From: Spirochaetota bacterium
GTDB taxonomy: Bacteria; Spirochaetota; UBA4802; JAFGJZ01
Direction: 5' to 3'
Length of the DNA: 64,000 nucleotides
Assembly: GCA_016934935.1 (NCBI GenBank)
Contig: JAFGRW010000050.1
Span: forward strand, 811-64,810
Of this stretch, positions 8,672-58,921 are shown piece by piece. Positions within the stretch are counted from its first letter, which is position 1. Each line of letters opens with the position of its first letter. Position numbers and translations under genes: made by a program. Below the pieces are notes generated by a model that was not told where the DNA came from, searched no databases, and was given only the letters and a program-made list of their open reading frames with translations.

Positions 8672-8695
8672 ATTTTCCTCTGTTTATGCCCTTAG

Positions 8696-17727: not shown

Positions 17728-17729
17728 AA

Positions 17730-18824
17730 TTATATGATCTCCTCTTTAGAATAAGATTTTGACTGTAATTTTAATTTTGAATATCCGTTAAAGTCCATAA
17801 GATGTGAAAAACCAGCTGAAACCATCATCTTTCTGCAATCGCAAGTTGTAATTTCATCATTATCACGCCATAAAGCGGTAGTAAAACCTTCTTTGTCTTT
17901 TACTGGATGATTCTCCGGATCTCCATGAATTGGTTCCCCAGTCTCGGGAAAAAATGCATTTGCACCGCTAAATAATCCAGCAACACTAGGTGCGTTTACT
18001 GCTATGCTTTTTATGTTTGGTTTGTTTTGGGTTGCCAATGCAACAACTGCAATAATCTGGTTCAGTCTGGATAAACTGACCTGACCGTATTTATATAGCG
18101 GTGAGCCTTTAACGGGAAACCGCTGCATAACTCCGTGCTGAACACATGGATAATCAATTCCTATCCATATTTGCTCAGCCAGCTCTTCAGGTGTATGCTC
18201 CGGTCCAACCGGTTCACACATATTAAACCATGACAATCCAGCCTCCAGGATGTACTCAATAGTTTTTTTTCTTGAATCCGGACTGATGCACGAGTCTGTG
18301 CCTTCTCTCAAGCGGGAAACGTGATAAGCTCCTGTAACGCCGGCATCTTTAAGTTCTTTAAGTTGTGAAAGTGAGAGGTCTCCTACATTAGCCAGTATTT
18401 CAAATTGATTTGGAATTAAATTACGTAAATCTGCACATAAGTCTCTAAACCAATCAAGACCAAACCGATGCATGGTCATTAAGAAAACTCCTTGGGCACC
18501 TCCAAGGACAAATTGTATGCAACGATCTATAATTTCTTGTTTGTCAAGAGCAGACGGTTTAATTAAAGCATTAGAATTCGCAAAAAAACAAAACGCGCAA
18601 TCACCATCACATGGCGCCATATCCACACCAATTTGCCCCAGAAGAAGCGCGTGATTCGAAAATTTTTGACGACTGACAATGTTGGCTGTAGATGTTAATA
18701 TAGATGATTCTAATGAGTTTTCTGGCAACTTCAGTAGATTTATTGCTTCATCTTTTGTAATGGATTTACCGTTCTCGGCGTTCATCAGAATACTGATTAT
18801 TTTTTTGTCAGCTTTCACATTCAT
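17730..18824 (-). CDS. Radical SAM enzyme (BioB/HydE/PylB-like TIM-barrel type, no SPASM tail seen)
   Basis: CDGDCAFC is a CX3CX2C motif at about aa 80, with an upstream helical region typical of the BioB-like group. Confidence 0.65.
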   Translation of the reverse strand: MNVKADKKIISILMNAENGKSITKDEAINLLKLPENSLESSILTSTANIVSRQKFSNHALLLGQIGVDMAPCDGDCAFCFFANSNALIKPSALDKQEIIDRCIQFVLGGAQGVFLMTMHRFGLDWFRDLCADLRNLIPNQFEILANVGDLSLSQLKELKDAGVTGAYHVSRLREGTDSCISPDSRKKTIEYILEAGLSWFNMCEPVGPEHTPEELAEQIWIGIDYPCVQHGVMQRFPVKGSPLYKYGQVSLSRLNQIIAVVALATQNKPNIKSIAVNAPSVAGLFSGANAFFPETGEPIHGDPENHPVKDKEGFTTALWRDNDEITTCDCRKMMVSAGFSHLMDFNGYSKLKLQSKSYSKEEII

Positions 18825-18943
18825 TTCCTGTTATTTGCTAAGGTCAGCGTCTTAAATAAAACCTGGTATACCATAAATTGATGTATGGTTTTTTTCGGTA
18901 TCATAGTATAGCAAACTATTTTTATAAGAGTAAATAATCTGTT

Positions 18944-19489
18944 TTACCCTCCTTTTAGCAGATATGGTAAGCTTGCTTCAGTTGGTCTGATCGCATTTGC
19001 CGGGCACACTGCCGCGATAGCGCACTGGTTACAGTGAGAACAGTACTCCTGATCTATCTGAAGATAGAGCGATCCGTTCCCGAATGCCTCGCAATTTTTA
19101 GCGCACCGTCCACAGCCGATACATAATTCCCGGTTTATTCTGTACTCGAAATAAGGGTTCTCTATAAAATTGCGTTCAATAGCACCAGTCGGACAGATCT
19201 GTCTTTCGGGGGCTGTGTCAAGCATGGCGGTACCTTGCCGATAATATCCCGAACAGAGGTCGCAGTAGCCACAGATTGCGTAGGTATGTACACATCTTAC
19301 AGCTGAGTGAAACTTGACACAGGCATTTTCACAGAGACCGCAGTTGGTACATTTGTCAGGATCGATCTGCCATAACCGCCTCTTGAATGCAATTCGGTTA
19401 AACCATGGTCCCAGTATGAGTCCTGCAACGGTTCCACCAGTGGCCCATAAAAATAGCTTCTTTAACAGGTCGCGTCTGCTTAATGACAT
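18944..19489 (-). CDS. Tat-signal (RRDLLKK) NapG-like poly-[4Fe-4S] ferredoxin
   Basis: MSLSRRDLLKK plus a hydrophobic stretch. Motifs CTNCGLCENAC, CGYCDLC, CIGCGRCAKNC and CSHCNQCAIAAVCP. Confidence 0.75.
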   Translation of the reverse strand: MSLSRRDLLKKLFLWATGGTVAGLILGPWFNRIAFKRRLWQIDPDKCTNCGLCENACVKFHSAVRCVHTYAICGYCDLCSGYYRQGTAMLDTAPERQICPTGAIERNFIENPYFEYRINRELCIGCGRCAKNCEAFGNGSLYLQIDQEYCSHCNQCAIAAVCPANAIRPTEASLPYLLKGG

Positions 19490-19491
19490 GC

Positions 19492-19707
19492 TTATGACTC
19501 CTTGCCGGTAACTCTCTTATACGAGAGAGCTTCAGCTCTTGAGCACTTATTAACAGCTCCACATCCTCTGCATACACCACTGCGGCTGCAACCGGAGCTA
19601 GTATTGTCGGTGTCTATCTTGTCATGCAGCAGGTAACCTCCCATTAACATAAAAGCGGCACCAGCTACAAATCGGCATCCGGTTAGTAAAAATTCTTTAC
19701 GGTTCAT
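19492..19707 (-). CDS. 71-aa membrane-anchored Cys-rich protein resembling the RnfB N-terminal Fe-S domain
   Basis: One TM helix followed by C-x6-C-RG-C-GAVNK-C-SRAEAL (compare RnfB NCGGCGYAGCRAFAEAL, from memory). ATGA overlap with P4 and a 2-nt gap to the ferredoxin gene. Confidence 0.5.
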   Translation of the reverse strand: MNRKEFLLTGCRFVAGAAFMLMGGYLLHDKIDTDNTSSGCSRSGVCRGCGAVNKCSRAEALSYKRVTGKES

Positions 19708-21155
19708 GGTAAATCTCCATTCAAATCATAACAGCGTAAGCGTTTATCATCTCTCGCGATCAGGATACCGGTTTCGGTCAATGCCAGCGGTCCCCATGCG
19801 TCACGTCCATCCGGCAAAATAATTTGAGAATCCAGAAGCTCGTATCCTTCACGGTTAACTCTAAAGAGATAGAGAGTTCCGTCATCGTTAAGAAGCAAAA
19901 GTCTATCGCCTGATAACAGGTAAGGACCAAGACCAAAGCGCAGGTCTGATCCGCTGCTCCAGAGTATCGTGCCCGAACTATCGGCGGCGACCAGTTGTTC
20001 CCGTAGCGCGCCGGCATCCTTAGGTTGTATACCAATAATAAAAGAGCCGGCGTTTATCGGTGTCTGCTGTTCGCTTGCAAGCCCTTCGTGAGGAGCACGA
20101 TGAATCCCTTCGTCTACTATCCAGTTGCCGCTTTGTAAACTTACGTCAAAAAAAATGGTGCCGCTTCCGTATCCGGCACTCTGGATTATACGATTACCCA
20201 TAATTACAGGTGAGGGCGCTATGACATTCGCATTCCACTTATATGTCCACAAAAGCCGTCCCTTATCTCCCTGCTTCGCGGAAACTGATACAATACCTCC
20301 AACTGCCGCGTATATATATTGCGGCACACCATCAATCGTTGCCTTCATGATAGAGCTGTGTGAAAGTCCAAATTGTTCTGTATTCGGTGTCTCCCAGGCT
20401 ATCTCTCCACTGCTCTCCTCGATGCCGATCATAAGCGCTCTATCCGATGCCGGAGCAACGACAACAATGCCGTCATCAACAAGTGGGCACTGCGCCGTAT
20501 ACCATGATGGAATGGCGGAGTTCCACTCGGAGGCAAGGTCAACTCCCCATAACAGGGAGCCGTCGGTATTGTTAACGGCCATCACATGTCCTGACGGGCC
20601 GATTGATACAACACTGTTTTCTGTAACAGCAGGAACAGCCCGAGAGTAACCATGGTTTTTCTTTATTGGCTGCTGGTAGCCGTTCTGCCAAAGTTCTCTG
20701 CCGTCGGATAATCTGAAACAGCGAAGAAGATCACGCTGGGCATTTTCATCATAATCAATAATGTAAACTTTGCCGTCACGCACAGCTGCAGCCGCATAAC
20801 CTTCACCAAGCGTGATCTCCCATAAAAGCCGCACACCACTTAGAGAGTTAAAGTCGGCCGGCAGGGCACTGGCTGTTTGAATATTATTTCCTCTTTCACC
20901 GCGAAAGGAGGGCCAGCTGCCGTCAATATCATGTTTTGAATCGGGAACATCGAAAACGACATGCCAACTACCAAACCGCGCGACATTGGAGCTACCTTGT
21001 CGCCAGTCGGGTGGTTGGTTGTCCATATCGGATGTGTGAGCAGTCCAAGATATAGTTGGGTCGTATCGCAACATAAAAACAAGTATCGCGATAAAGGGAA
21101 GGCTGATAAGCAGAGCAGCCGGCTTGCTGTAAATGCTCAGTCCGTTCTGACGCAC
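19704..21155 (-). CDS. Membrane-anchored PQQ-like beta-propeller repeat protein (P4)
   Basis: N-terminal TM (AALLISLPFIAILVFML), then SWPSFRG and propeller repeats similar to P2. Confidence 0.7.
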   Translation of the reverse strand: MRQNGLSIYSKPAALLISLPFIAILVFMLRYDPTISWTAHTSDMDNQPPDWRQGSSNVARFGSWHVVFDVPDSKHDIDGSWPSFRGERGNNIQTASALPADFNSLSGVRLLWEITLGEGYAAAAVRDGKVYIIDYDENAQRDLLRCFRLSDGRELWQNGYQQPIKKNHGYSRAVPAVTENSVVSIGPSGHVMAVNNTDGSLLWGVDLASEWNSAIPSWYTAQCPLVDDGIVVVAPASDRALMIGIEESSGEIAWETPNTEQFGLSHSSIMKATIDGVPQYIYAAVGGIVSVSAKQGDKGRLLWTYKWNANVIAPSPVIMGNRIIQSAGYGSGTIFFDVSLQSGNWIVDEGIHRAPHEGLASEQQTPINAGSFIIGIQPKDAGALREQLVAADSSGTILWSSGSDLRFGLGPYLLSGDRLLLLNDDGTLYLFRVNREGYELLDSQIILPDGRDAWGPLALTETGILIARDDKRLRCYDLNGDLP

Positions 21156-22342
21156 GTTACCTCCCCAGTATTGCTTCTCAGGTAAAGACGGTTGTTCCAG
21201 AATGTAGGAGTGCTCCAGGCTATGCCTCTGCCTTTAAATATCTCCATTGTTTTCCCAGCACTGTATCCACTTCGCGATGGGTTTATCGGAATTAGGATGC
21301 CATCTTCTCCAAAAAAAATGATGGTGTCATTAATCTTAATTAGCGAACCGTATTGAGAAGTTTTTTCTTTCCAGATAACCTTTCCTGTTCGCGGATCCAT
21401 ACAGACAAAATTATTACGGGAGCGTTGTCCTGTGTTTCCTTCAATTCCGTATACAAGACCTTTATGCTCAATTAAGCTGCTGAAATGTGAACCAAGATCT
21501 TTGGACTCCCAAATTTTTTTAAATGATCCGGTCGAATAGTCTAAAAGTGTCGATCCACGACCATAACCGGATGAGATAAGCACCTTGTTGCCTGCAAGAA
21601 GAAGTGGGTCGGCTGCGTTAACGTTATGTGATGTTTTCCAGCTATATTCAGCCAGCTGTCGACCGTTTACCGCGTCAAGCATAACAAGAGCCGTGGAATT
21701 AAACATCATAATTGAACGTTTTCCTTTAAACGAAAAGAGAACCGGAGACGCGTAACCCGGTTCTGCGTCACTATTTTTCCAGCGAGTTTTACCGGTTTCA
21801 GCATCAAGAGCGATTCCGCCTCCGATATTCAGATATATTACATCGTCTTCGATGACTGCGGATGAAGCAATCCCGTATTGCCCTGCCGAAAGCTTCTCTT
21901 TCTTGCGCAGGTCGCGTTTCCAGACAGGTCTGCCGTTGTCAAGAGTGAGGCAGTGTATATCTCCATCAGAACCAATCATATAAAGCCTGTTGTCGTATAT
22001 AACCGGCATTGCCCGTGGGCCGGCATATTGATATTTTTTTCCTGCTTCAAAGTCATGGGTCCAGATAACACGTCCGTTAGAGGCATCCAGCGCGTAAATT
22101 GTTGTCAACTGCTTACCTCCACTGGATTTTAATCCCGCGGTATATACGCGATCTGATGTCGCGGCTATGGCGGAATAGCCATTTCCGACAGAAGCTTTCC
22201 AGACAGTTTGTCCGCTCTTTTTTGTAAACTCCGGATCAAATCCGGTAGTGCTTATTGAACCGTTGCGCAATGGTCCGCGCCAGATGGTCCATCCCGACGC
22301 GTGAGGGGAAGCCTCGCCGATCAAATATGTGTCATCATCCAT
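21137..22342 (-). CDS. PQQ-like beta-propeller protein (P5), separated from its signal peptide
   Basis: Same subfamily motifs as P3 and P6, but the ORF begins MDDDTYLIGEASPHASGWTIWRGP with no signal peptide. The signal peptide sits in the short upstream ORF. Confidence 0.7.
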   Translation of the reverse strand: MDDDTYLIGEASPHASGWTIWRGPLRNGSISTTGFDPEFTKKSGQTVWKASVGNGYSAIAATSDRVYTAGLKSSGGKQLTTIYALDASNGRVIWTHDFEAGKKYQYAGPRAMPVIYDNRLYMIGSDGDIHCLTLDNGRPVWKRDLRKKEKLSAGQYGIASSAVIEDDVIYLNIGGGIALDAETGKTRWKNSDAEPGYASPVLFSFKGKRSIMMFNSTALVMLDAVNGRQLAEYSWKTSHNVNAADPLLLAGNKVLISSGYGRGSTLLDYSTGSFKKIWESKDLGSHFSSLIEHKGLVYGIEGNTGQRSRNNFVCMDPRTGKVIWKEKTSQYGSLIKINDTIIFFGEDGILIPINPSRSGYSAGKTMEIFKGRGIAWSTPTFWNNRLYLRSNTGEVTCVRTD

Positions 22343-22770: not shown

Positions 22771-22857
22771 AGGTAACAGTTTGTTTGACAGGTAACTTTA
22801 GAATTTCAGCAAATAGAATATCATATGTATAATCTGCTTAAGTGAGGAAGCCAGGTG
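22771..22857 (+). promoter_or_regulatory. Putative activator-dependent promoter of the AraC/terpenoid cassette
   Basis: AGGTAAC direct repeats at 22771 and 22790. Weak -35 TTCAGC (22805-22810), 17-nt spacer, perfect TATAAT (22828-22833). SD gaggaag, GTG at 22855. Confidence 0.3.
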
Positions 22858-24018
22858 CTTAATTCGATAAAACAGAATCTTCATCTTCTTATTATATTTC
22901 AGTCTCTACTATTTATGATTCTTCTCTGTCTGCTTTCATTTAAAAAAAACAGGGCAAATCGTTATCTTTTTTTCTTTTTTTTGTTTATGTTATGCGGAGA
23001 GGTCGGCGGGCTTATTAATCGTTTTATGCCGTCTGATTTATGTACCGCATTTGTAATAGTTCCGCGTATTTTCTTTATTCTGATTACTTTGAGTTTTCTT
23101 GCTTTTCCTTTTTTTCATTTATATGTTCTTTCCAGTACTGACAATAGTTTCCGTCTCTCCTTACGTCATTTGATCCATCTCATACCATTTTCAGCTGTTC
23201 TTTTATATGTTTTCTTCGAGTATATAGTCAGTGGCTCGGTAACAACTTATCTGATCAGCTCTAATAACCATACTGTTTTTGCGTTTTTTGAGTATCAGAA
23301 TATCCGCATAGCCCGAGTCATTCAGTTCTACTCCTATATCTTACTTGCGTGGTACAGCCTGTACCAGCACAAAAAAAATATCACAAATATATTTTCTTCT
23401 GTTTCCAATATCAGTCTGCGATGGTTACGGTTTTTTTTGGTTGCAATTGCCCTGTGGGGATTGTTCGAGATAGCGGCGATATTGGTCTACAGAGGAGTCT
23501 TGAAGTTCTACTACCCCTATGCCTACATTCTTTCGTCAGTTGCCCTTTTAATAATCTTAACAACTCTCTTTTTGAAGGCATTATCTCAGCGTGAGATAAT
23601 TATACCTGTCAAACTTGAGCGTGTTGGTAAGTATAAAAAAAACCCTCTCGATGAAAAGGAAAAGAACATTTATCTGAAAATGCTCAACGAATATATGCTG
23701 CGAGAAAAGCCCTATCTTGAACCGGAGCTGACAGTAAAAAACCTTTCCGACATGACAGAGATCCCACCGCATAGGATCTCACAGGTGTTGAATAGCGCCC
23801 TTAAAATTAATTTTTATGATTATGTTAATAGTCACCGGATAGAGGAGAGTAAACAACTACTTTCTTCTGATCCAGAAGATAAAAAAAATATTATTGAGGT
23901 TGTGTATGAGTCCGGTTTTAACAGCAAGTCAACATTTAACAGCGTTTTTAAAAAACATACGGGTATGACTCCCTCCGAGTATAAGGCTGCAAAAAAAGAG
24001 CCATTTATGGCTTCGTGA
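22855..24018 (+). CDS. AraC-family transcriptional regulator with multi-TM N-terminal membrane domain (A1)
   Basis: About 240 aa of hydrophobic helices followed by the AraC HTH region (FYDYVNSHRIEESKQLL, ESGFNSKSTFNSVFKKHTGMTPSEY). Confidence 0.85.
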   Translation: MLNSIKQNLHLLIIFQSLLFMILLCLLSFKKNRANRYLFFFFLFMLCGEVGGLINRFMPSDLCTAFVIVPRIFFILITLSFLAFPFFHLYVLSSTDNSFRLSLRHLIHLIPFSAVLLYVFFEYIVSGSVTTYLISSNNHTVFAFFEYQNIRIARVIQFYSYILLAWYSLYQHKKNITNIFSSVSNISLRWLRFFLVAIALWGLFEIAAILVYRGVLKFYYPYAYILSSVALLIILTTLFLKALSQREIIIPVKLERVGKYKKNPLDEKEKNIYLKMLNEYMLREKPYLEPELTVKNLSDMTEIPPHRISQVLNSALKINFYDYVNSHRIEESKQLLSSDPEDKKNIIEVVYESGFNSKSTFNSVFKKHTGMTPSEYKAAKKEPFMAS

Positions 24019-24072: not shown

Positions 24073-24903
24073 ATGAAAACAAAACAGATTATAATATGCA
24101 ATTGCCGAGGCAAACGAGGCGGGGATATTCTGGATGCTGATTTAGCAGAATATTTAAATAACAAAAAAATTTCCTGCCGTCAAGTCTCAGACCTTTGCGG
24201 TATGGCCGCTCGTAATAAAGATACTCTATCATCTATCTTGCACGCGGCAGACCAAACAATGATTGTGGCATGCACTCAGCGTTCAATTCGCCTTATCGCA
24301 GATTATGCGGGTATTTTACTTAAACAAGATAAATTTTATGTCTGTGACCGCTTTAAAGAAGAGGCCAGCGAACTTCGTCTTAAAATAGATGAGTTTTGTG
24401 GAAGCGGCAGTCTGCCTGAACTGACATCTGTTGAATCACTTAAATCTGATGAATCAGAAATTTGGAATTCATGGTATCCCATTATTGATTATGACAGGTG
24501 CAGCTCATGTGGAAACTGCGCGCAGTTCTGCCTTTTCGGTGTGTATGAACAGAAAAAAGGAAAGGTTCGCGTTATTAATCCTGCTGGTTGCAAGGATCTA
24601 TGCCCTGCCTGCGCGCGAATCTGCCCGGAGGCCGCAATTGTCTTTCCCAAGTACGAGGGGGGCGGCGCAATCGGTGGAAGTGACACTATTGATGAAGCGG
24701 CTGAGAAACATAGAATAAAAGATGATCTTCAAGAAATTGCTGATAATGATATTTACGCTACACTCCAAAAAAGAAAGGAAAAACGTCTCTCGCTTCTCAA
24801 AGAGGGTGTCGTTAAACGGGCAGAGAAGGAGAGAGAAGAGGCGTTAGCGGAAAGTGCCCAAGATAAGGTAAAAAAAGTACAAATAAAAATGGATAAAAAA
24901 TGA
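24073..24903 (+). CDS. 4Fe-4S dicluster ferredoxin-domain protein with Cys-containing N-domain and charged C-tail
   Basis: CSSCGNCAQFC and CKDLCPACARICP motifs. Lys/Glu-rich C-terminus. ATGA overlap with the next gene. Confidence 0.7.
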   Translation: MKTKQIIICNCRGKRGGDILDADLAEYLNNKKISCRQVSDLCGMAARNKDTLSSILHAADQTMIVACTQRSIRLIADYAGILLKQDKFYVCDRFKEEASELRLKIDEFCGSGSLPELTSVESLKSDESEIWNSWYPIIDYDRCSSCGNCAQFCLFGVYEQKKGKVRVINPAGCKDLCPACARICPEAAIVFPKYEGGGAIGGSDTIDEAAEKHRIKDDLQEIADNDIYATLQKRKEKRLSLLKEGVVKRAEKEREEALAESAQDKVKKVQIKMDKK

Positions 24904-26084
24904 GATTAATTCTGCGATTTATATTTAAAATTAATGCCGGATGCCGTCGTAAATTTATCCGTAATCTGGTAATAAAAGGTGTTGGAACCCTTAGAACCTT
25001 CCGTCGTCGAAAGAAAAATGGAGGCCACTTTCCGGCATTTCATTTTATATCGATTACTAACAGGTGTAACCTGGCGTGTCAGGGATGCTGGGTAAGCAGA
25101 AGTGATGAGGGTACAGATTTGCCTCTTGATCGCATTGACGCAATTATAGCCGAAGGCAAAAGAAATAAAAGTTATTTTTACGGACTTCTTGGAGGAGAGC
25201 CTCTTTTGTACCCCCAGCTTTTTGATATAGTCTCTAACCATTCCGACTGTTATTTTCAGCTCTTTACAAACGGACTGCTTCTTGATGATACGGTTGCAGA
25301 TCGTATTCTTGAATGTGGTAATGTAACCCCGCTGATCAGTCTTGAGGGTAATCAAACCGCTGCTGATATCAGACGCGGAGGCAGTGATGTCTATCGTCAA
25401 ACAGTTGACGCGATTAAGCGCTGCACCTCGCGCGGTATTATAACCGGTGTGGCAATGAGCGTCTGTAAATCAAATTACGATATGGCTCTTGATAGATCCT
25501 TTTTAAAAGAGCTCTGGAAAATGGGGGTTGTCTATCTCTGGTATTATATATATCGTCCCGTCGGAGAAAACCCCTGTTATGAGCTGGCACTCGAATCAGA
25601 TCAGATAGAGTCATTAAGGCGCTTTATGATAGATGAGCGAAAATCTCAACCGCTGATAATTGTTGATTCGTACTGGAATGCTGACGGCGCGCCATTTTGT
25701 CCGGCAGCTGAGGGATTAAGTCATCATATTAATCCGGCAGGATATGTCGAGCCGTGTCCGGTGCTTCAGTTTTCACACGACAAAATAGGTAAGGATACGG
25801 ATATCAATGCGTTTTACAATCAGGGTGCCTTTTTGCCTTCGTTTAAGCGAGCGCTCTGTGATAAAACAGACGGGTGCATTCTTATGGAGGATCCAAAATG
25901 GCTTGCTGACTATATTATTAAATCTGAAGCTATTAATACCTCAAACAGAAAACATTATATAAACATGCTTGGTGACGCTCCGACGCTTTGCAGCCATTCG
26001 GTTGCGTCATCAATTAAAGAGAAGAGCTTCTTTTATCGTTTTGCAAAGCGTCACGCTTTTTTCGGGATGGGGGCCTATGGATAA
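24900..26084 (+). CDS. Radical SAM enzyme (MoaA/PqqE/HpnH-like fold)
   Basis: ITNRCNLACQGCW (CX3CX2C), GGEPLL, TNGLLL. Translationally coupled on both sides. Confidence 0.75.
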   Translation: MRLILRFIFKINAGCRRKFIRNLVIKGVGTLRTFRRRKKNGGHFPAFHFISITNRCNLACQGCWVSRSDEGTDLPLDRIDAIIAEGKRNKSYFYGLLGGEPLLYPQLFDIVSNHSDCYFQLFTNGLLLDDTVADRILECGNVTPLISLEGNQTAADIRRGGSDVYRQTVDAIKRCTSRGIITGVAMSVCKSNYDMALDRSFLKELWKMGVVYLWYYIYRPVGENPCYELALESDQIESLRRFMIDERKSQPLIIVDSYWNADGAPFCPAAEGLSHHINPAGYVEPCPVLQFSHDKIGKDTDINAFYNQGAFLPSFKRALCDKTDGCILMEDPKWLADYIIKSEAINTSNRKHYINMLGDAPTLCSHSVASSIKEKSFFYRFAKRHAFFGMGAYG

Positions 26085-27678
26085 ACAGGTTGTCTTTTGT
26101 GATACAAATGTCATGCTCCATGTGCCATCTTTGGCAGATGACAGAAAAAGCATACGTGATTCTGCCGCGAGTTTTGCGCGTGAACAAAAAATTATCGCGC
26201 CTCTTCCGGCAGTCCATCTTTCACTTCTTGCGGATTCATTTTTGCGGGCCTATATGTTTGATGAGTCATATCGCGCATACTCTATGCTTGCTCTGGCCAA
26301 TGAAGTATGGCGCCCTGTCGTTGCTTCTGTTCCCTATGAGCGCCGTATACTGATACTGCCTGAGTGCCTTAAAAGTTCAACATCATGCCAAGCCGCGCGT
26401 GACTCAATGGGGCTTGTTTGCGCGGGTTGCATGAAATGTCAGATCGGAGAGATCTATGAAAAGGCAGAGGGCTGCGGATATCAGGTTATAGTTTCTGAAG
26501 GGACTACAGTTGCGCGGCAGATAGTTTTACAAGGAGGCGCGGATGCTATTATCGGTGTAGGCTGTTTGGATTCGCTGAGCCGAATATTTGAAGATGTGCA
26601 AGGCAGTTTAATACCCTCAATTGGTATTCCTCTTCTTCGTGACGGTTGTATGGATACTGCTGTTGATATGGGCTGGCTTGAGGAGGAGTTGCTGGTACAA
26701 ACTGAAGCTGAGAGCATTCTTCATTATGCTTATGTTAAAAGAAGCACTGAGGCGATGTTTACTAAAACGGTACTTGGGATGCATGCTCAAAATTCATATA
26801 ATTCAGATAAAACTGTTAATATTGCCCTCGAATACCTTTTGCTCGATGGAAAAAGAATCCGGCCTATGCTTTTTAATCTTGTTTATGAGTCTCTTTGCGA
26901 TGAGCATAATAAAAAGGCACAGCAAAAGCTAGCTCTATCGATTGAATCTTTCCATAAAGCATCACTGATCCATGATGATATTGAGGATGATGACGATACC
27001 CGTTATGGAGTAAAAAATCTGCATCGCCGATATGGAGTACCGGCCGCGATTAATATCGGTGATTACCTTATCGGATTAGGGTACAGTCTGATCTCTGGCT
27101 GTGGACTAACAGAAAAAAAAATAGCTGATTGTCTTAAAATAGCATCGCGTGGGCATGTCGATCTGACAATTGGTCAGGGGCATGAACTCTTTTCGCGATT
27201 AACAGATGATATTGTACCGCTTGCGGATCTGATAACCCGTTTCAAGAACAAGACCTCCGCTGCGTTTCGTATTCCTCTTCTTATGGGGGCGGCTGCGGCT
27301 GGGGCTCCAAAGCCTCTGTTTGCTATTCTCGAACAGTTTGCCGATTCGCTTGGTATAGCATATCAGATTCACGATGATCTGCATGACTACTCTGTGGGGC
27401 AATCCGGTTTCCTGGTTAGTGATTCTTCGTTTCTTTTCGCGCTGGCGATTGAGGATGCTACTGAAAAAGAAAAAGATAGCGTTCGCGAATACTTAATAGA
27501 AAAGGATTACGATAAGATTATTAAGTTTATCGGACAGGGGATGGTAGTCGAACAAGCCAAATCCCTGCTCAAAGAAGAGTTAAACAAGGCTCTAACGCTC
27601 GTAGGTACGATTCAAAATAAGAGTATCCATCTTACACTTCGTCAGCTTGTTATCGGTTATTTTAATGAGTATCTGTGA
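26077..27678 (+). CDS. Fusion: Cys-rich DUF116-like N-domain plus trans-polyprenyl diphosphate synthase
   Basis: LILPECL..STSC...GLVCAGCMKCQIGE...GVGCLD resembles DUF116 (recalled, not verified). LIHDDIEDDDDTRYG (first Asp-rich motif) and YQIHDDLHDY (second). Start ATG 26077 overlaps the upstream stop (ATGGATAA). The track start at 25969 is rejected. Confidence 0.75.
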   Translation: MDKQVVFCDTNVMLHVPSLADDRKSIRDSAASFAREQKIIAPLPAVHLSLLADSFLRAYMFDESYRAYSMLALANEVWRPVVASVPYERRILILPECLKSSTSCQAARDSMGLVCAGCMKCQIGEIYEKAEGCGYQVIVSEGTTVARQIVLQGGADAIIGVGCLDSLSRIFEDVQGSLIPSIGIPLLRDGCMDTAVDMGWLEEELLVQTEAESILHYAYVKRSTEAMFTKTVLGMHAQNSYNSDKTVNIALEYLLLDGKRIRPMLFNLVYESLCDEHNKKAQQKLALSIESFHKASLIHDDIEDDDDTRYGVKNLHRRYGVPAAINIGDYLIGLGYSLISGCGLTEKKIADCLKIASRGHVDLTIGQGHELFSRLTDDIVPLADLITRFKNKTSAAFRIPLLMGAAAAGAPKPLFAILEQFADSLGIAYQIHDDLHDYSVGQSGFLVSDSSFLFALAIEDATEKEKDSVREYLIEKDYDKIIKFIGQGMVVEQAKSLLKEELNKALTLVGTIQNKSIHLTLRQLVIGYFNEYL

Positions 27679-28561
27679 TTATGCACGTTTTCTGAGGATC
27701 ATGTGGAGCGTCCCCTCGATAAAAGCTGTTCTAAAAAAAGGCTATCGGCAAATTTCATTGCAGGATCAAGAGAAGATCAGAGATTATTTGCAACAGTCTC
27801 AATGCTCAACAGGTGGCTTCACAGATCGTAATGGACGTGAAGATATATACTATACTTTTTTCGGAACAATAATCGCGGACTCTCTATCCATTCGCTATGA
27901 TTACAGCTCTGTCGCTAAATATATAGGTCACTACTCTGTGGATCAAGAGACTTCCCTTGCGGATATGATATCTTACGCGGCTCTTTTATATAAACATACA
28001 GGCAATAAAAAAAGAGCTTTATCAATTCTCAGCAAAATTGACACTGTAACAACCAAAAAAAAGATTGTCGAGCCTGTCTATGCTGACATCATGATGACTC
28101 TTGCCTGTTTGCAATGCCGCTTATACTTCCGAGCAGCTCACATCCTTAAATCTCAAGCCGAACAGATGTTTTGTGAAACTGCCGCTATGACACCTCTTGT
28201 TGCCGCAAGAGTTACAATGATTAGTATATATTTAAAGAAGGCTGGTCTGTTTAAAAAAAAAGAAAGTGCTGTGACGGAGTTAAAGCGTCATGCGGAATCC
28301 TGTGTGGATGTATTGATTAACCGGGTGTCCGACGTAGGTGGTTTTAAAGCATCTGCTAAAGTTATCGTGCCTGATCTTCTATCTACTGCGGTTTCACTGT
28401 ATGCACTAAAATGTTATGATTATGATCTGCGTGCCATTGCTCCATCAATGCTTGATTTTATTACTTCTGTATATTGTGACGGTAGCTTTGCCCCTTCGGA
28501 ATATGAGGCAGGAGATGTTGAGTATCTCTTTTATGGTCTTCTTGCTCTCGGCTCATTATAG
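27665..28561 (+). CDS. Prenyltransferase/terpene-cyclase alpha-alpha-toroid repeat protein (~300 aa)
   Basis: Repeats of the type QQSQCSTGGFTD, VSDVGGFKAS and YCDGSFAPS. ATG 27665 overlaps the upstream 3' end by 14 nt; TTG 27647 is an alternative start. Confidence 0.6.
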   Translation: MSICDYARFLRIMWSVPSIKAVLKKGYRQISLQDQEKIRDYLQQSQCSTGGFTDRNGREDIYYTFFGTIIADSLSIRYDYSSVAKYIGHYSVDQETSLADMISYAALLYKHTGNKKRALSILSKIDTVTTKKKIVEPVYADIMMTLACLQCRLYFRAAHILKSQAEQMFCETAAMTPLVAARVTMISIYLKKAGLFKKKESAVTELKRHAESCVDVLINRVSDVGGFKASAKVIVPDLLSTAVSLYALKCYDYDLRAIAPSMLDFITSVYCDGSFAPSEYEAGDVEYLFYGLLALGSL

Positions 28562-28652
28562 TGCTTGGTTAAGCAAATTATTTTCAACAGAAAACTTTAA
28601 AAACGCATAACTTTAACAATAGCATAGTTGTTATATTAACAGGATACAGAAT

Positions 28653-30473
28653 ATGAATAACGTCAGACAGATATACAAAGAGTGTGCCTCCTCTTTGGTG
28701 CAAAAGAGAGAGGGTGATCTTTGGAAGGGGCGTCTCTCTTCGAGTGCACTTGCCGTATCCGTTGCCATTACGGCTTTCGCGATGTATGACAGTAATTTGC
28801 TAAAACAACAGATTAAAGATGGTGTACGCTGGCTTATTGCCACACAGAATGGGGACGGTGGTTATGGTGACTCGCCACAAAGCATCAGCAATATTAGTAC
28901 AACTCTTTTATGCTACGCTGCCTTAACAATCTGCGATGATCAGAAAGAGTCAAGAGTCGCACGCGGTCGGATCTGCTTATATCTGTATAGACAAGATATT
29001 GATATGAAGAGAGATTTTGTAGAACGTTCGGTTCTTGACCATTACGGCAGGGATCTAACATTCTCGGTTCCAATATTGACTATGCTTGCGATCTGTGGTG
29101 TGATTGATGATTTTGAAAAAATTCCTCAGTTGCCCTTCGAGTTTTCCCTTCTGCCAAGATCTCTATTCCGTTTTTTCAATCTTCAAGTGGTTAGTTACGC
29201 GATACCGGCATTGATAGCTGTTGGAATTGTTTGCCTAAAAAAGAAGAGAAAATCTAATCCATTTCTTCGTTTTATAAGATACAGGCTGGTAAAAAAAGCT
29301 TTATGTCGACTGCAATCGTTGATGCCGCAAAGTGGAGGCTTTCTGGAGGCTGTTCCGTTAACCGGTTTTGTCTCCCTCAGTCTGCTTGCGGCAGGTGTTC
29401 GCAATCAAACAGTTGAAAGAGGAATTTCGTTTTTAAAAAAAATACAGCGGAGTGACGGATCATTTCCTATAGACACGGATCTTTCACTCTGGGTCACAAC
29501 ACTTTCTATTAAAGCATTAAATGATAATCTGAATACCAGTTGCGGTCAAGAGGCCATTGAGCGGCTTCGGAATATACTTTTAAATAGTCAGTATCGACAG
29601 GTTCATCCGTTTAACGGAGCAAAGCCCGGTGGCTGGGGATGGACTACCTTTAGCGGCGCTGTTCCGGATGCCGATGACACCTCCGGTGCAATACTTGCAC
29701 TGGCTATTTTATCTGACGGATCTGCAGAAGTTAAGCGCTCTATTAAACTCGGATGTGACTGGTTAATCTCGCTTCAGAACAGGGACGGTGGTGTACCTAC
29801 ATTCTGCAAGGGGTGGGGTCGTCTTCCATTTGACAAGAGTTGTGCCGACCTTACTGCTCACGCCTGTGCTGCAATTATTAGAAGCAGGTATTACCTTAAT
29901 GGGGTGATAACCAATAATACAGCGCGTTGTTACGGCCGTTTTATTAATCGCGCTCTTGGCTATCTTGAAAAAAACCAGTCTTCAACTGGAGCGCTATTGC
30001 CTCTATGGTTTGGAAATCAAGATCATCCCGAACATAAAAATCCTGTCTATGGTAGCGCAAAGATCTCTGTATATCTGCGGGACTCTTTGCAGTTTGTTTG
30101 TGAAGATAGTCAAGAGTATAGGCGGATTTATAAACTTGCAGATAAAGCCTGTCGTTATCTTGAGTCATGCCAGAACGAGGACGGTGGTTGGGGTGCTGCC
30201 TCTGGTATAAAGTCGACTTTGGAAGAGAGCGCATTATCTGTATCGGCATTAACATCTTTTAACCGGGACAGAGCGGTGCGTGGTGTTGATTACCTTCTCA
30301 GCGCAATTAAAATTAATGGAATTACCGCGTCACCAATTGGTCTCTATTTCGCTTCACTCTGGTATGATGAGGAGCTTTACCCTCATGTTTTCCTAACAGA
30401 GGCGCTGGGGCGTTATATCCGAACTGCGGATAATGGCTGCACTGAAAATTTGGATAAGCTTGAAAAAATGTAA
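28653..30473 (+). CDS. Class II terpene cyclase (squalene-hopene cyclase family, DxDD type)
   Basis: GGWGWTTFSGAVPDADDTSG (compare SHC GWAF....PDVDDTA). QW-like motifs TQNGDGGYG, IQRSDGSF, LQNRDGGVP and CQNEDGGWG. Confidence 0.8.
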   Translation: MNNVRQIYKECASSLVQKREGDLWKGRLSSSALAVSVAITAFAMYDSNLLKQQIKDGVRWLIATQNGDGGYGDSPQSISNISTTLLCYAALTICDDQKESRVARGRICLYLYRQDIDMKRDFVERSVLDHYGRDLTFSVPILTMLAICGVIDDFEKIPQLPFEFSLLPRSLFRFFNLQVVSYAIPALIAVGIVCLKKKRKSNPFLRFIRYRLVKKALCRLQSLMPQSGGFLEAVPLTGFVSLSLLAAGVRNQTVERGISFLKKIQRSDGSFPIDTDLSLWVTTLSIKALNDNLNTSCGQEAIERLRNILLNSQYRQVHPFNGAKPGGWGWTTFSGAVPDADDTSGAILALAILSDGSAEVKRSIKLGCDWLISLQNRDGGVPTFCKGWGRLPFDKSCADLTAHACAAIIRSRYYLNGVITNNTARCYGRFINRALGYLEKNQSSTGALLPLWFGNQDHPEHKNPVYGSAKISVYLRDSLQFVCEDSQEYRRIYKLADKACRYLESCQNEDGGWGAASGIKSTLEESALSVSALTSFNRDRAVRGVDYLLSAIKINGITASPIGLYFASLWYDEELYPHVFLTEALGRYIRTADNGCTENLDKLEKM

Positions 30474-30582
30474 TAAGTGTTCGCTAGAATTATTAAATAA
30501 TATCCACAAGTATAGTATTTTACTATTCCTGTAATAGTAGTGGTTTTATAATAATTAAAATTAATATAAAGAGGAGATGTAA

Positions 30583-31848
30583 ATGATGAACAAATTTAAT
30601 TGGTGTAAGAATATGTTTTTACAGGCAGTTGTGATAATTTCATTGCTACTGTTATGTGCGTGTTCGAAACCTATTGATCAGCAAGAGGGGTGGACCAAAT
30701 GGCGAGGACCTTCAGGCGATGGAACCATACGTGATGAAGCTTTTAATCCTTCGTTTATTAATAACAAAGACAATATCAAATGGCGGACGACGGTCGGTTC
30801 CGGATATTCTGGATTGTGTGTATCCAATAATCGCGTCTATACCATGGGTAAAAAAAATGATTCTGGTGCATTTATCGATGTAGTCTATTGTATCGACAGT
30901 AAAAATGGGAAAATTGTCTGGACTTACGAGTATACATTGATGAGAGAATATCCGTACGCAGGTCCTCGTGCAATGCCGGTTGTAGATGGTGATCGACTTT
31001 TTACCTTAAGTGCTGATGGCGATTTGACTGCTCTTGATGTCCATAGTGGAGAAAAAATATGGGACAGAAATATTCCCTATTCAGAGAATCTTCCGATTAG
31101 TATTTATGGTATTACAGGATCACCGGTTATCGAGAAAGGTGTTATTTACCTTAATATCGGGGGTGGAATTGCTCTTAATGCGGATACCGGTAAGACAATC
31201 TGGAAAGGAAAATTTGCTCCAACCGGTTATGCGACGCCTGTGCTGCTGGATTATAAAGGAACGCGGGCTGTGATGTTTTTTACGGGTAATATGCTTCGAT
31301 TGTTGAATGCTGCTGATGGAAAAATTATTGCAAGTAGCGACTGGATAAATGAACAGGGTATTAACGCGGCGGATCCTCTTATTGTTGAAGATGGAAATGT
31401 GCTGGTTTCTACTTCATACAGAAGTGATGGTTCCGGCATGTATGATTTTTCATCAGGCTCCTTTGAGGAAAAATGGGTGAGATCGGGTATCAGCACCCAC
31501 TTCAGCAGCCTGATTAAGCACGATGAACTCGTTTACGGTATACATGGTGATACAAATGCTCGGGGTCGATGTGAGTTTACCTGCCTTGATCCATTGTCAG
31601 GAGAGGTTGTTTGGAGCAGTCGCACATCGCTTTATGGCTCACTTATTAAGGTTAATAATACCATTATATATTTGAATGAAAATGGACAGCTTTATACTGT
31701 TGAACCTTCCCGAGAAGGATTCAAAGTAAGCTCCTCGCTTAACGCTCTTTATGGTAGAGCTAATTCATGGGTAGCGCCTTCGTACTGGAAAGGACATCTT
31801 TATTTACGATCTAATTCCGGTGAAGTTGTTTGCGTAAAAGCGATTTGA
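30583..31848 (+). CDS. PQQ-like beta-propeller lipoprotein (P6; paralogue of P3 and P5)
   Basis: Signal peptide with LLCAC lipobox. The same motif set as P3 (GWTKWRGP, YAGPRAMPVV, VIYLNIGGG, INAADP, STHFSSLIKH, LYLRSNSGEVVC). SD gaggag. Confidence 0.8.
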   Translation: MMNKFNWCKNMFLQAVVIISLLLLCACSKPIDQQEGWTKWRGPSGDGTIRDEAFNPSFINNKDNIKWRTTVGSGYSGLCVSNNRVYTMGKKNDSGAFIDVVYCIDSKNGKIVWTYEYTLMREYPYAGPRAMPVVDGDRLFTLSADGDLTALDVHSGEKIWDRNIPYSENLPISIYGITGSPVIEKGVIYLNIGGGIALNADTGKTIWKGKFAPTGYATPVLLDYKGTRAVMFFTGNMLRLLNAADGKIIASSDWINEQGINAADPLIVEDGNVLVSTSYRSDGSGMYDFSSGSFEEKWVRSGISTHFSSLIKHDELVYGIHGDTNARGRCEFTCLDPLSGEVVWSSRTSLYGSLIKVNNTIIYLNENGQLYTVEPSREGFKVSSSLNALYGRANSWVAPSYWKGHLYLRSNSGEVVCVKAI

Positions 31849-32214: not shown

Positions 32215-33378
32215 TCATGATGCTATGGATGACTTTCTTTTTTTATTTTTAAACTGGGAAGGTGTCATACCTGTATGTTTTTTAAAAACACTGTTAAATG
32301 TTGACTTGCTGTTAAATCCGGACTCGTACACAACCTCAATTATGTTTTTTTTCTCTTCAGGATCGGAAGAGAGTAACCGTTTACTCTCTTCAATTCGGTA
32401 ACTATTGACATAATCATAAAAATTAATTTTTAGGAAGCTATTTAACACCTGTGATATCCGGTGAGAAGGGATTTTTGTCATATCAGACAATGTTTGTACA
32501 GTCAACTCTGGTACAAGAAAAGGTTTTTCATGTAACATGTATTCGTTTAGTATTTTCAAATATGCACTTCTCTCTTTTTCATTAAGAGGATTTTTTTTAT
32601 ATTTGCCAACATGCTCTAGTTTTGCAGGTAGAATTATTTCGCGTTGTGAAAACGCCCACAAAAAAAGTATTGTCAGAATAATAAGAAGAACGACTGATGA
32701 AAGTATATAGGCATATGGATAATAACCTTTAAAAGATTCCCGGTATACAATGATAGCTACTATTTCAAAAACACCCCACAAACCTATTGCAATCAGAAAG
32801 AAATGCAACCATCTAAGACTAATGCTGGAAACTGAAGAGAAAATATCAATAATATTTTTTCTATGGCAATAAAGGCTGTGTGAAGTAAAAATAAGATAGG
32901 CGTAAATCTGGATAACCCTAAGTATACGTATGTTTTGATATTCAAATACAGAAAAAAGACTATGATTGTAGGTGCTCATAATTATCGTATTAGCCGGTCC
33001 TTTAGAAATATACTCAACAAAAATATACAGAAGCACAACTGCAAAAGGTAACAGATGAATTAAATGCCGGGAAGAGAGGCGAAAATTATTATTGGCAATA
33101 GACTTTGTATAAAAATATAAAAAAGGAAATGAGAGAAAGCTCAGAGGTGTTGTAAAAAAGAAAAAGGGAGGAGCAGGGTGATAAGCTTTAAATTGATCTG
33201 TTGGAACAGAGTGATTTAAGAATCCACCCACCTCACCACACACTATAAAAAAGAAAAAGAAGAAAAGATAACGATTTGACCGGTTTCTATTAAAAGGCAA
33301 CATACAAAGAAAAATCATGAACAGCAGTGATTGAAAGGTGGTTAGAAGATGAATATTTTGTTTTATTGAATAGAGCAT
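32215..33378 (-). CDS. AraC-family regulator with multi-TM N-terminal domain (A2; inverted paralogue of A1)
   Basis: Same length (387 aa) as A1 and roughly 70 percent identical by eye. The HTH region is nearly identical (ESGFNSKSTFNSVFKKHTGMTPS). Confidence 0.85.
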   Translation of the reverse strand: MLYSIKQNIHLLTTFQSLLFMIFLCMLPFNRNRSNRYLFFFFFFIVCGEVGGFLNHSVPTDQFKAYHPAPPFFFFTTPLSFLSFPFLYFYTKSIANNNFRLSSRHLIHLLPFAVVLLYIFVEYISKGPANTIIMSTYNHSLFSVFEYQNIRILRVIQIYAYLIFTSHSLYCHRKNIIDIFSSVSSISLRWLHFFLIAIGLWGVFEIVAIIVYRESFKGYYPYAYILSSVVLLIILTILFLWAFSQREIILPAKLEHVGKYKKNPLNEKERSAYLKILNEYMLHEKPFLVPELTVQTLSDMTKIPSHRISQVLNSFLKINFYDYVNSYRIEESKRLLSSDPEEKKNIIEVVYESGFNSKSTFNSVFKKHTGMTPSQFKNKKRKSSIAS

Positions 33379-39419: not shown

Positions 39420-39540
39420 AGGTACGGGCATTGCGTGTCTGGTTTATCATAATTAAATTTACATTTTTTTAAGTATACTGCTAGAATTTAAAAGCTATAT
39501 GCTTGACTAAAATATGCCGTTTTTATAGTTGTTAACTGAT

Positions 39541-39613
39541 GGGGATGTAGCTCAGCTGGGAGAGCACCACAATGGCATTGTGGGGGTCGCGTGTTCGATC
39601 CACGTCATCTCCA
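39541..39613 (+). tRNA. tRNA-Ala (anticodon GGC)
   Basis: Hand-folded cloverleaf: GGGGATG acceptor stem with G3:U70, D arm GCTC/GAGC, anticodon stem CCACA/TGTGG with loop ATGGCAT, and T arm with TTCGATC. No encoded CCA. Confidence 0.9.
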
Positions 39614-39630
39614 AAAATTACAATATTACA

Positions 39631-56554: not shown

Positions 56555-56946
56555 TCAGGCTCCATTATTTTTAATTTGTCTTTGCAACAGTTGCAATCAG
56601 GATGTCCAATAAAGTATAAATCGATGATTAATGTTATTTGTAAGATTGGTTTCTTTAATCGGTTAATGATTATTAATCTTGCTAAAATTGCTGCTGGTGA
56701 AAAGATATACACCAAGTTCGATGATTAACAATTTAGGATATTGTGAAAATTTATGTTTATCAGTAAAGCTTTTTTATTTATGGTTCTTAAAATCGCGGTT
56801 TTATTGCTTTAAGTTAAGCGGTTACAAATTTGATAATTACTGAGTCGCCATTAGTTTTGTGATAACTATCGAAAAATATAGCATCAGAACTTATTATAAG
56901 TCGAGATTATATTACTGGAATATATTGGGTGTGTTTGAGGTTAAGA

Positions 56947-58912: not shown

Positions 58913-58921
58913 TAAAATACC

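Follow-up and report, generated by a model that had tools for sequence, protein, structure and literature searches.

A DxDD class II terpenoid cyclase and a DUF116-polyprenyl synthase fusion at the core of a conserved gene system in a Spirochaetota bacterium

A 64-kb stretch of a Spirochaetota metagenome-assembled genome (MAG; contig JAFGRW010000050.1), hereafter the window, carries a terpenoid gene cassette with a class II cyclase and a polyprenyl diphosphate synthase, and we analyzed this cassette together with its surroundings and its relatives in other phyla. Each open reading frame (ORF) of at least 120 amino acids (aa) in the window was scanned against Pfam. Housekeeping proteins encoded in the window share 90% identity or more with their counterparts in a 'Spirochaetota bacterium' MAG, and the contig is also found under GCA_016937815.1. 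The initial annotation had described six co-directional, translationally coupled genes, and all six ORFs were found on the plus strand between 24073 and 31848, with Pfam matches that agree with the identity proposed for each:

24073..24903, plus strand: ferredoxin-like protein, 276 aa (Pfam 4Fe-4S dicluster, Fer4_7/Fer4_10)
24900..26084, plus strand: radical S-adenosylmethionine (SAM) enzyme, probably of the SPASM/twitch type, 394 aa (Pfam Radical_SAM, 8.8e-18)
26077..27678, plus strand: fusion of DUF116 and a trans-polyprenyl diphosphate synthase, 533 aa (Pfam DUF116, 8.9e-33; polyprenyl_synt, 1.9e-41)
27665..28561, plus strand: single-domain (α/α)6 toroid, 298 aa (weak Pfam Prenyltrans; AlphaFold predicted local distance difference test [pLDDT] 90.5)
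28653..30473, plus strand: βγ class II terpenoid cyclase, 606 aa (Pfam SQHop_cyclase_N and SQHop_cyclase_C)
30583..31848, plus strand: BamB/PQQ_2-type β-propeller lipoprotein, 421 aa (Pfam PQQ_2, 1.8e-24; lipobox LLLCAC)

Translational coupling holds for the first four genes, which overlap by 4, 8 and 14 nucleotides (nt), the radical SAM ATG overlapping the ferredoxin stop codon (ATGA); it does not extend to the cyclase and propeller genes, which are set off by 91 and 109 nt. As start codons, both the gene callers and the alignments with homologues favor ATG 26077 in the case of the fusion and ATG 27665 in that of the toroid. The fusion ORF stays open back to a TTG at 25969, and the toroid ORF had been listed from 27647.

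We compared the cyclase, together with a profile and alignment of 60 family sequences, with the squalene-hopene cyclase (SHC) of A. acidocaldarius, using a reference sequence verified as identical to PDB 1GSZ. Alignment of the family profile with SHC by hhalign gave a probability of 99.3 at 25% identity, and SHC was also the best solved relative of the cyclase in a PDB sequence search, at an E value of only 2e-9. The two enzymes have in common the βγ double-toroid fold, QW motifs, the DxDD motif with its His partner and an aromatic-lined cavity. D339/D341/D342 and D399/H403 match SHC D374/D376/D377 and D447/H451, while W280, W330, Y182, W452 and Y466 match SHC W312, F365, W169, W489 and Y495, and all of these residues are invariant in the 60 homologues. 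SHC E45 and Y420 are not kept and are replaced by V37 and L391. The DxDD motif lies within GWGW-x7-PDADDT, which corrects the x8 spacing first given, and the QW-like motifs, of which at least four had been counted, comprise three canonical and two degenerate copies. The cyclase scored 81.4 bits against the hopene_cyclase model TIGR01507 (cut-off 431.1) and 106 bits against the general squalene/oxidosqualene model (cut-off 323); the best hopene_cyclase E value among the 60 family members was 3.9e-30, and none came near the cut-off. Judged from the sequence, the strong acid that protonates an alkene is intact and the part of the cavity tied to hopene termination differs. We conclude from the profile scores and the SHC alignment that this is a protonation-type class II cyclase and, as far as such comparisons predict, not a hopene cyclase, as the initial annotation had held.

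The cyclase also differs from SHC in its gene context. No SQS_PSY, RND/HpnN, HpnG or HpnH equivalog was detected among the window ORFs of at least 120 aa (Pfam; TIGR03470 for HpnH), and a regular expression for the SQS/PSY signature returned nothing in the window, which bears out the earlier statement that squalene-forming and hpn genes are missing there. The same expression returned nothing credible in a set of 80 related loci that we assembled around cyclase homologues and to which the window proteins were mapped by tblastn and ORF clustering. In place of squalene genes, the cyclase is linked to the polyprenyl synthase. These results bear on the possibility that it is an ordinary squalene cyclase producing a hopanoid-like triterpene, with squalene supplied by hpnCDE or sqs elsewhere in the genome and the synthase only boosting farnesyl diphosphate. 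Such a role would fit the retention of the SHC DxDD motif, the Asp/His pair and most of the aromatic active-site residues, and homologues are publicly annotated as 'squalene--hopene cyclase'. We nevertheless consider it very unlikely given the hopene_cyclase scores across the family, the 25% identity to SHC, the loss of the SHC termination residue E45 along with Y420, the lack of squalene genes in the window and the 80 related loci, and a synthase that carries DUF116 as a fused domain and stays tied to the cyclase from phylum to phylum.

The fusion protein joins a DUF116 domain with seven invariant Cys residues (C97, C104, C115, C118, C121, C163 and C191) to a synthase domain that scores 142 bits against Pfam PF00348, for which the cut-off is 27. 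In an alignment of about 60 fusion homologues, D300/D301/D304 of the first Asp-rich motif (FARM; DDIED, within DDIEDDDD) and D433/D434/D437 of the second (SARM; DDLHD) are invariant, and residues 292-311 form a family signature, FHKASL[IV]HDDI[EQ]DxDxxRYG, that is near-invariant across phyla. A fusion with this signature was found in 61 of the 80 related loci. The domain also has the GGxRxRP motif, KT pair and YQ...DD motif known from elongating head-to-tail synthases. In the AlphaFold model of the fusion (pLDDT 86.8; predicted template modeling score [pTM] 0.82), the DUF116 α/β domain is docked onto the synthase. Foldseek matches of this model were dominated by the synthase domain, with C20 to C45 synthases not told apart, and were uninformative for DUF116. 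The window also encodes IspG (56929-58044), which indicates that the host makes its isoprenoid units by the methylerythritol phosphate route.

Inspection of the chain-length positions of the synthase, a check proposed in the initial annotation, pointed beyond C20. The FARM is preceded by Ala (-5) and Ser (-4) and carries no insertion, unlike the FARM of type I and type II short-chain enzymes. Ile332 and the invariant Gly333 occupy the positions of Y107 and F108, the chain-limiting floor residues of the yeast geranylgeranyl diphosphate synthase (GGPPS); residue roles here follow the structures of farnesyl diphosphate synthase (FPPS) and GGPPS. With small residues at these positions, we predict a synthase product beyond C20. 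This prediction bears on a further possibility, that the cassette makes a class II di- or sesterterpenoid specialized metabolite: geranylgeranyl diphosphate or a C25 precursor would be converted to a bi- or tricyclic prenyl diphosphate, decorated by the radical SAM enzyme and a glycosyltransferase, and secreted. Fusion homologues are annotated as 'geranylgeranyl diphosphate synthase' in the sources, the best PDB sequence match of the fusion is an archaeal GGPPS, and the FARM (DDIEDN) is similar to that of type III GGPPS; in addition, diphosphate-acting class II cyclases are common in bacteria, and an ABC exporter and a glycosyltransferase are encoded close by. Against this, small residues are found at the positions where chain length is limited in type I and type III GGPPS, the cyclase is a βγ enzyme of the full length of 600 aa with a γ domain of the 'triterpenoid' type, and the cassette has no class I terpene synthase partner. 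The wide distribution, which takes in at least seven phyla and 463 clusters at 50% identity, also fits a structural lipid better than a niche metabolite. We therefore regard the metabolite explanation as unlikely.

The toroid gene lies between the fusion and the cyclase. AlphaFold predicts a single (α/α)6 barrel, for which the best Foldseek matches, all weak, were the monodomain class II cyclases 8pak and MstE (E values of 1e-3 or higher, TM score about 0.53), drimenyl diphosphate synthase (DMS) and RabGGTase-β (TM score 0.36), and a PDB sequence search with the toroid gave no match. D60, Y62, Y63, F66, Y139, D237, D284, E286 and Y290 are invariant in the toroid family, and the invariant D60, Y62, Y63, D284 and E286 suggest that the protein may bind something specific. 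No Cys or His is conserved in the 62 toroid homologues that were compared. The toroid is therefore not a Zn prenyltransferase: the Asp/Cys/His triad that binds Zn in the β subunit of protein prenyltransferases is missing, and this candidate was rejected.

Two iron-sulfur proteins are encoded at the head of the cassette. An alignment of 22 ferredoxin sequences showed an extra N-terminal domain with four invariant Cys (C9, C11, C42 and C67) ahead of a C-terminal 2x[4Fe-4S] domain with eight invariant Cys. The radical SAM enzyme is the most conserved protein of the cassette (52-57% identity to Bacteroidota homologues). Its core motif CNLACQGC begins at residue 56 and supplies a CX3CX2C triad (C56/C60/C63), and C189, C267, C286, C326 and H275/H276 are conserved in addition. 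A profile of the radical SAM family matched SkfB (1e-17), BlsE (2e-13), SuiB and CteB in the PDB, with GDGT-MAS more distant (4e-6). GDGT-MAS is a lipid C-C-bond-forming enzyme. An assignment of this enzyme as HpnH was ruled out, since it scored 45.7 bits against TIGR03470 (cut-off 225) with a match to the core only.

We then considered how widely these genes travel together. The cyclase belongs to a large family, with at least 7,800 matching clusters at 90% identity and 463 clusters at 50% identity (E value of 1e-30 or lower). Homologues occur in Bacteroidota, Fibrobacterota, Planctomycetota (including Gemmataceae), Lentisphaerota, Acidobacteriota and Auribacterota, with Spirochaetota represented here. 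The order ferredoxin, radical SAM enzyme, DUF116-polyprenyl synthase, toroid, cyclase is the same in Bacteroidota, Fibrobacterota, Lentisphaerota, Auribacterota, Acidobacteriota and the present Spirochaetota MAG. Planctomycetota loci are rearranged: the cyclase is followed by the same DUF116-synthase fusion, and radical SAM, toroid, ABC ATPase and FtsX genes are close by, in the order toroid, ABC ATPase, FtsX. Linkage was counted in loci with at least 6 kb on each side, which left 16 from Bacteroidota and 19 from Planctomycetota. In the Bacteroidota loci the fusion, the radical SAM enzyme and the ferredoxin were each found in 15 of 16, the toroid in 14, a propeller within 10 kb in 13 and NuoF in 6; in the Planctomycetota loci the corresponding counts were 18 of 19 for the fusion, 9 for the toroid, 8 for the ABC ATPase and 7 each for the radical SAM enzyme and FtsX. 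With the fusion beside the cyclase in 15/16 and 18/19 loci, the arrangement is far from chance. The proposal that the cyclase is paired with a dedicated polyprenyl synthase and not with squalene genes is thus upheld, the linkage being kept in at least seven phyla.

Natural fusions connect the same genes. In a search covering 1.84 billion representative proteins, P0384, P0514 and P0453 came up as single proteins with the toroid joined to the cyclase on its N-terminal side; P0483 appears by sequence inspection to be a further toroid-cyclase fusion, and gave no toroid BLAST hit. In P0419 (locus L086, 10001-13279) the cyclase is followed by a transmembrane helix and then by a β-propeller (residues 630-1089) that is orthologous, with 41.6% identity (E value 2e-111), to the product of a window gene at 19704-21155. 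The L086 genes form one co-directional operon with the order propeller, ferredoxin, radical SAM enzyme, DUF116-synthase, toroid, cyclase-propeller, NHL-like protein, 71-aa protein, polyferredoxin and NapH-like protein. In the window, the counterparts of the last four kinds of gene are found in a minus-strand operon of about 19 kb (3597-22342) that diverges from the cassette, and L084, the locus of the nearest relative, has the same divergent layout. Together, the single operon of L086 and the P0419 fusion place the divergent operon in the same functional unit as the cassette. The cassette, first presented as a stand-alone unit, therefore belongs to a system of about 28 kb. A recent mobile insertion was considered as an origin and ruled out, as the nearest cyclase relative is only 56% identical and shares the divergent layout.

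Some loci depart from these patterns or carry additional genes. In L015 (CBDDLB010000002.1) the cyclase stands alone within ±10 kb and a DUF116-synthase protein (P0341) is on record, so that both are probably present in that genome and unlinked. In Planctomycetota, a family of 180-aa proteins (F6; for example L060 13794-14348) follows the DUF116-synthase in 13 of 19 loci; it has no Pfam match, and a guess from its sequence that it is a chorismate lyase was dropped. A FAD-dependent oxidoreductase (halogenase/GGR-like) follows in seven Planctomycetota loci.

The divergent operon encodes the following proteins, listed from its first gene to its last:

21137..22342, minus strand: β-propeller, 401 aa (prop401), first gene of the operon (Pfam PQQ_2, 2.5e-44)
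19704..21155, minus strand: membrane-anchored β-propeller, 483 aa (Pfam PQQ_2)
19492..19707, minus strand: small protein, 71 aa, with four Cys and a Tat-like (twin-arginine translocation) N-terminus, MNRKEFLL; conserved beside the ferredoxin gene
18944..19489, minus strand: polyferredoxin, 181 aa (Pfam Fer4)
17730..18824, minus strand: second radical SAM protein, 364 aa, with CDGDCAFC, weakly BioB/PylB-like; a lineage-specific extra
16444-17727, minus strand: β-propeller lipoprotein, 427 aa (prop427; Pfam PQQ_2, N-terminus)
15227..16525, minus strand: NapH/MauN-like membrane iron-sulfur protein, 432 aa, conserved with the cassette (Pfam Fer4_5; NCBIfam NapH, 5.9e-10)
13458-15302, minus strand: β-propeller, 614 aa (Pfam PQQ_2)
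11167-13524, minus strand: NuoE-NuoF fusion, 785 aa (Pfam, NCBIfam)
9786-11192, minus strand: 2Fe-2S/GltD-like protein, 468 aa (Pfam, NCBIfam)
8696-9793, minus strand: β-propeller lipoprotein, 365 aa (Pfam PQQ_2, N-terminus)
6686-8671, minus strand: family 4 glycosyltransferase (GT4) fused to a LolD/DevA/MacB-type ABC ATPase, 661 aa (Pfam; NCBIfam LolD, 8.4e-65, and DevA, 3.4e-55)
3597-6689, minus strand: FtsX-type permease, 1030 aa, which clusters with permeases of 10 related loci (Pfam)

Five propellers are encoded in this operon, and the cassette propeller, a paralogue of prop427 (53.5% identity) and prop401 (44%), brings the number to as many as six. A small protein of 71-78 aa with four Cys adjoins the polyferredoxin in the window, in L084 (2190-2423) and in L086 (14232-14447), with the Tat-like N-terminal sequences RKEFLL, RRDFLL and RRHFLL, and together with the NapH-like protein it resembles a putative NapG/NapH-type electron route to the periplasm. 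The polyferredoxin is found downstream of the cyclase in L001, L031, L032, L038, L048, L066 and L086, and also in L067, where tblastn detected it and ORF clustering missed it. The NuoE-NuoF fusion and the GltD-like protein are a probable NADH-linked supply of low-potential electrons, and such genes co-occur with the cassette in L003, L011, L014, L031, L032, L038, L048, L066 and L067. The GT4-ABC ATPase protein, whose ATPase domain is closest to LolD, to the glycolipid exporter DevA and to MacB, is probably a glycosylation and export module together with the FtsX permease. No counterpart of the second radical SAM protein was found in the 80 related loci.

The redox proteins of this operon allow for the possibility that the lipid is a means to another end, namely that the propeller, NapGH-like and NuoEF-like proteins use it as their cofactor or anchor and that the real job of the system is periplasmic electron transfer and not the reinforcement of membranes. 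Up to six propellers, the NapH-like protein, the small Tat-like Cys protein and the polyferredoxins are interleaved in the operon, and the cyclase of P0419 is fused to a periplasmic propeller, both of which would suit such a machine. It is put in doubt by the lack of UbiA/MenA-type aromatic prenyltransferase and quinone-head genes among the window ORFs scanned, and by the presence of the electron module in only a minority of the related loci. Radical SAM enzymes need an electron supply of this kind, which is a simpler account of the module, and we judge a primary role in electron transfer to be highly improbable.

Several parts of the system have been described before. A clade of 'SHC-like' proteins was reported by Santana-Molina et al. 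2020 (PMC7306690) and was described as being of 'unknown function' by McShea et al. 2025 (PMC12414744), who named it a priority for future work; according to both studies its substrate, as yet unknown, is probably something other than squalene. In Planctomycete members the catalytic residues are retained and the gene context suggests non-squalene precursors (Santana-Molina et al. 2020, PMC7306690). The cyclase matches this clade in its spread over the Planctomycetota-Verrucomicrobiota-Chlamydiota (PVC) and Fibrobacterota-Chlorobiota-Bacteroidota (FCB) groups, Spirochaetota and Acidobacteriota, in length (550-700 aa for the clade, about 600 here), in its conserved catalytic residues and in its non-squalene context, and we found nothing that sets it apart. 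On this match in distribution and length to the published description of the clade, the cyclase very probably belongs to it. A 2026 preprint reports that true SHC is lacking or exceedingly uncommon in Bacteroidota and Spirochaetota. DUF116 (arCOG02078, PF01976) has been predicted to be a Cys-rich, probably flavodoxin-like electron-transfer domain, and Psta_0175 of Pirellula staleyi was pointed out as a case of its fusion with a polyprenyl synthetase (Makarova et al. 2015, PMC5898192). That fusion has the same two-domain architecture and was published as a one-line remark; what we add is its constant presence beside the SHC-like cyclase, seen in at least seven phyla, and its RYG signature. The clade itself, the Planctomycete gene context that points away from squalene and the DUF116-synthase fusion were all in print, which reduces the novelty that the initial annotation implied: its reasoning was largely right, but as an idea it was not new. 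The five-gene core order across phyla, the toroid-cyclase and cyclase-propeller fusions, and the inclusion of an electron-supply and export operon in the same system are new here, in that they do not appear in the papers we searched. Literature searches likewise found no paper reporting a product for the SHC-like clade or the DUF116-synthase system. We conclude that this region is a new Spirochaetota member of a known, functionally orphan cyclase group.

Domain identities, catalytic residues, linkage across phyla and natural fusions are what the analysis establishes; on this basis we suggest, with a probability of roughly 0.55, that the region is the core of a conserved system making a dedicated, cyclized head-to-tail polyprenoid lipid that does not derive from squalene. 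The order of steps that we infer would begin with the polyprenyl synthase domain of the fusion, which would build an all-trans head-to-tail prenyl diphosphate predicted to exceed C20. The βγ cyclase, with the toroid as its putative partner, would act second: D341 of the DxDD motif, polarized by H403 as in SHC, would protonate the terminal double bond, and the tail would be folded into polycyclic rings with a termination unlike that of hopene formation. Third, at least one reductive or radical tailoring step may be carried out by the ferredoxin, the radical SAM enzyme, of probable twitch/SPASM type, and DUF116 with its many Cys residues. In the divergent operon, the NuoEF and GltD-like proteins would provide low-potential electrons, which the NapH-like protein, the ferredoxin and the small Tat-like protein would pass towards the periplasm. 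Finally, GT4 would add a sugar and the LolD/DevA/MacB-type ABC ATPase and FtsX permease would move the lipid out of the inner membrane, with the membrane-anchored and lipoprotein β-propellers as candidate periplasmic partners.

A number of observations weigh against this proposal. According to McShea et al. 2025 (PMC12414744), the clade has neither a determined function nor a determined structure, and no member has been characterized biochemically. The cyclase keeps the SHC-type strong acid, which makes squalene a chemically possible substrate, and the search for sqs and hpnCDE covered the 64-kb window and the 80 related loci. The sequence and fold searches matched synthases from C15 to C45 without discriminating chain length. 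The toroid has PDLLSTA where cyclases have DxDDTA, so that only the first Asp (D237) is kept and the catalytic Asp is lost. The electron-transfer, propeller and transporter genes are tied to the core by synteny and fusions only, and at fewer loci (NuoF in 6/16, FtsX in 7/19). Lastly, where the FARM is canonically followed by RRG, about 55 of about 60 full-length homologues of the synthase have RYG, and a few have no R.G match. The second Arg of RRG in FPPS is a ligand of the isopentenyl diphosphate (IPP) diphosphate group. With Tyr at this position, one predicted IPP-diphosphate ligand is missing, and the synthase domain may not be a plain elongating enzyme.

The RYG signature can also be taken further, to a DUF116-synthase that is a new reductive coupling enzyme joining two prenyl diphosphates, in which DUF116 would draw electrons from ferredoxin instead of NADPH. 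A squalene-like or longer hydrocarbon would then feed the cyclase, and the cassette would have its own new type of 'squalene synthase'. That the synthase comes joined, in every lineage, to a redox domain whose seven Cys are invariant would make sense on these terms, as would the family-wide Tyr at an IPP-diphosphate ligand position and the dedicated ferredoxins and NADH-linked electron module that accompany the cassette. The synthase domain nonetheless has the FARM, SARM, GGxRxRP, KT and YQ...DD features of head-to-tail synthases, its closest structures are ordinary elongating synthases, a sister cyclase clade uses head-to-tail chains, and reductive coupling of this kind has no known precedent. 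We find such an enzyme extremely improbable.

The proposed cyclization of a head-to-tail polyprenoid has partial parallels in known pathways. The Bacillus sesquarterpene pathway (HepS/HepT, YtpB and SqhC), with which the cassette had been compared, likewise feeds a head-to-tail polyprenyl diphosphate to an SHC-type protonation cyclase. The analogy is a loose one beyond that point: neither a YtpB-type tetraprenyl-β-curcumene synthase nor a HepS/HepT pair was among the Pfam matches of the window ORFs, the SqhC group sits next to SHC and excludes this cyclase, and the system described here goes further, with iron-sulfur proteins, radical SAM proteins, a partner toroid and a probable export module. 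Lon15 (C40) and AtoE (C25), epoxy-polyprenyl cyclases of actinomycetes, are reported to form the sister clade and also act on head-to-tail chains. They need an epoxidized substrate made with O2, whereas most hosts of the present system are anaerobes, no epoxidase is encoded in the window, and the cyclase keeps a strong DxDD/His acid suited to plain alkenes. The hopanoid system (SHC, HpnH, HpnI and HpnN) offers a parallel in outline, with a cyclase, a radical SAM enzyme, a glycosyltransferase and a dedicated exporter; the proteins are not orthologous, the radical SAM enzyme here being SkfB/BlsE-like and not HpnH and the exporter ABC/FtsX and not RND.

Two regulators flank the cassette:

22855..24018, plus strand: AraC-family regulator with an N-terminal membrane domain, directly upstream of the cassette and its candidate regulator (Pfam HTH_18/HTH_AraC)
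32215..33378, minus strand: second AraC-family regulator with an N-terminal membrane domain, 69.5% identical to the first and convergent with the end of the cassette

Both are missing from L084, which indicates that they are a local addition and not core parts. Scans of the window for promoters and terminators gave no useful signal over background, and an Rfam scan of the window gave no match. The middle of the divergent operon (6000-16000) has 48-50% G+C, compared with 33-43% across most of the window, which could reflect amino-acid content or foreign origin. Three successive P-loop ATPases of the CbiA/ParA/Mrp-NBP35 type are encoded at 210-2758 on the plus strand, two of the three with inserted 4Fe-4S ferredoxin domains, and may be iron-sulfur cluster carriers. 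A tRNA-Ala (GGC) gene lies at 39540-39614 on the plus strand, between proS and adhE, with no sign of an integration site. A second gene set, separate from the first and located at 58073-62051 on the minus strand, encodes an ABC ATPase, an FtsX permease and a GT4 glycosyltransferase; it is followed by a gene for an LPG_synthase_TM protein at 62438-63535.

A cyclized regular polyprenoid, if that is the product, would add a new class to the membrane lipids of bacteria, in anaerobes without hopanoids and sterols, and would be a candidate source of orphan biomarkers. Tricyclic terpanes (cheilanthanes) are common in sediments and oils. To our knowledge, the biological source of tricyclohexaprenol has never been found; the compound is still cited in geochemical papers as the presumed parent of tricyclic terpanes. 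A more specific version of the polyprenoid proposal is that the system cyclizes regular polyprenols without oxygen, for example to 'tricyclopolyprenols' of the tricyclohexaprenol type, the hypothetical parents of these terpanes, by terpenoid chemistry without precedent in which an iron-sulfur domain is coupled with the polyprenyl synthase and a radical SAM step of the twitch type is added. We consider this quite unlikely. If it were true, a major class of orphan biomarkers would have its missing source in anaerobic Bacteroidota, Planctomycetota, Spirochaetota and their relatives, and the same bacteria would own a membrane lipid system that is hopanoid-like and separate.

According to the recent literature, the clade is the main uncharacterized branch of the terpenoid cyclase superfamily, and its substrate would inform the evolution of squalene and epoxide use. 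The ferredoxin, radical SAM enzyme, DUF116-synthase, toroid and cyclase make up a defined minimal gene set and, because the synthase is built into that set, the substrate need not be guessed. Cultured carriers are available in Macellibacteroides, Mangrovibacterium, Thalassoglobus and Anatilimnocola. The DUF116 domain, the toroid partner and the propeller fusion could each reveal new enzymology or a new route of lipid export.

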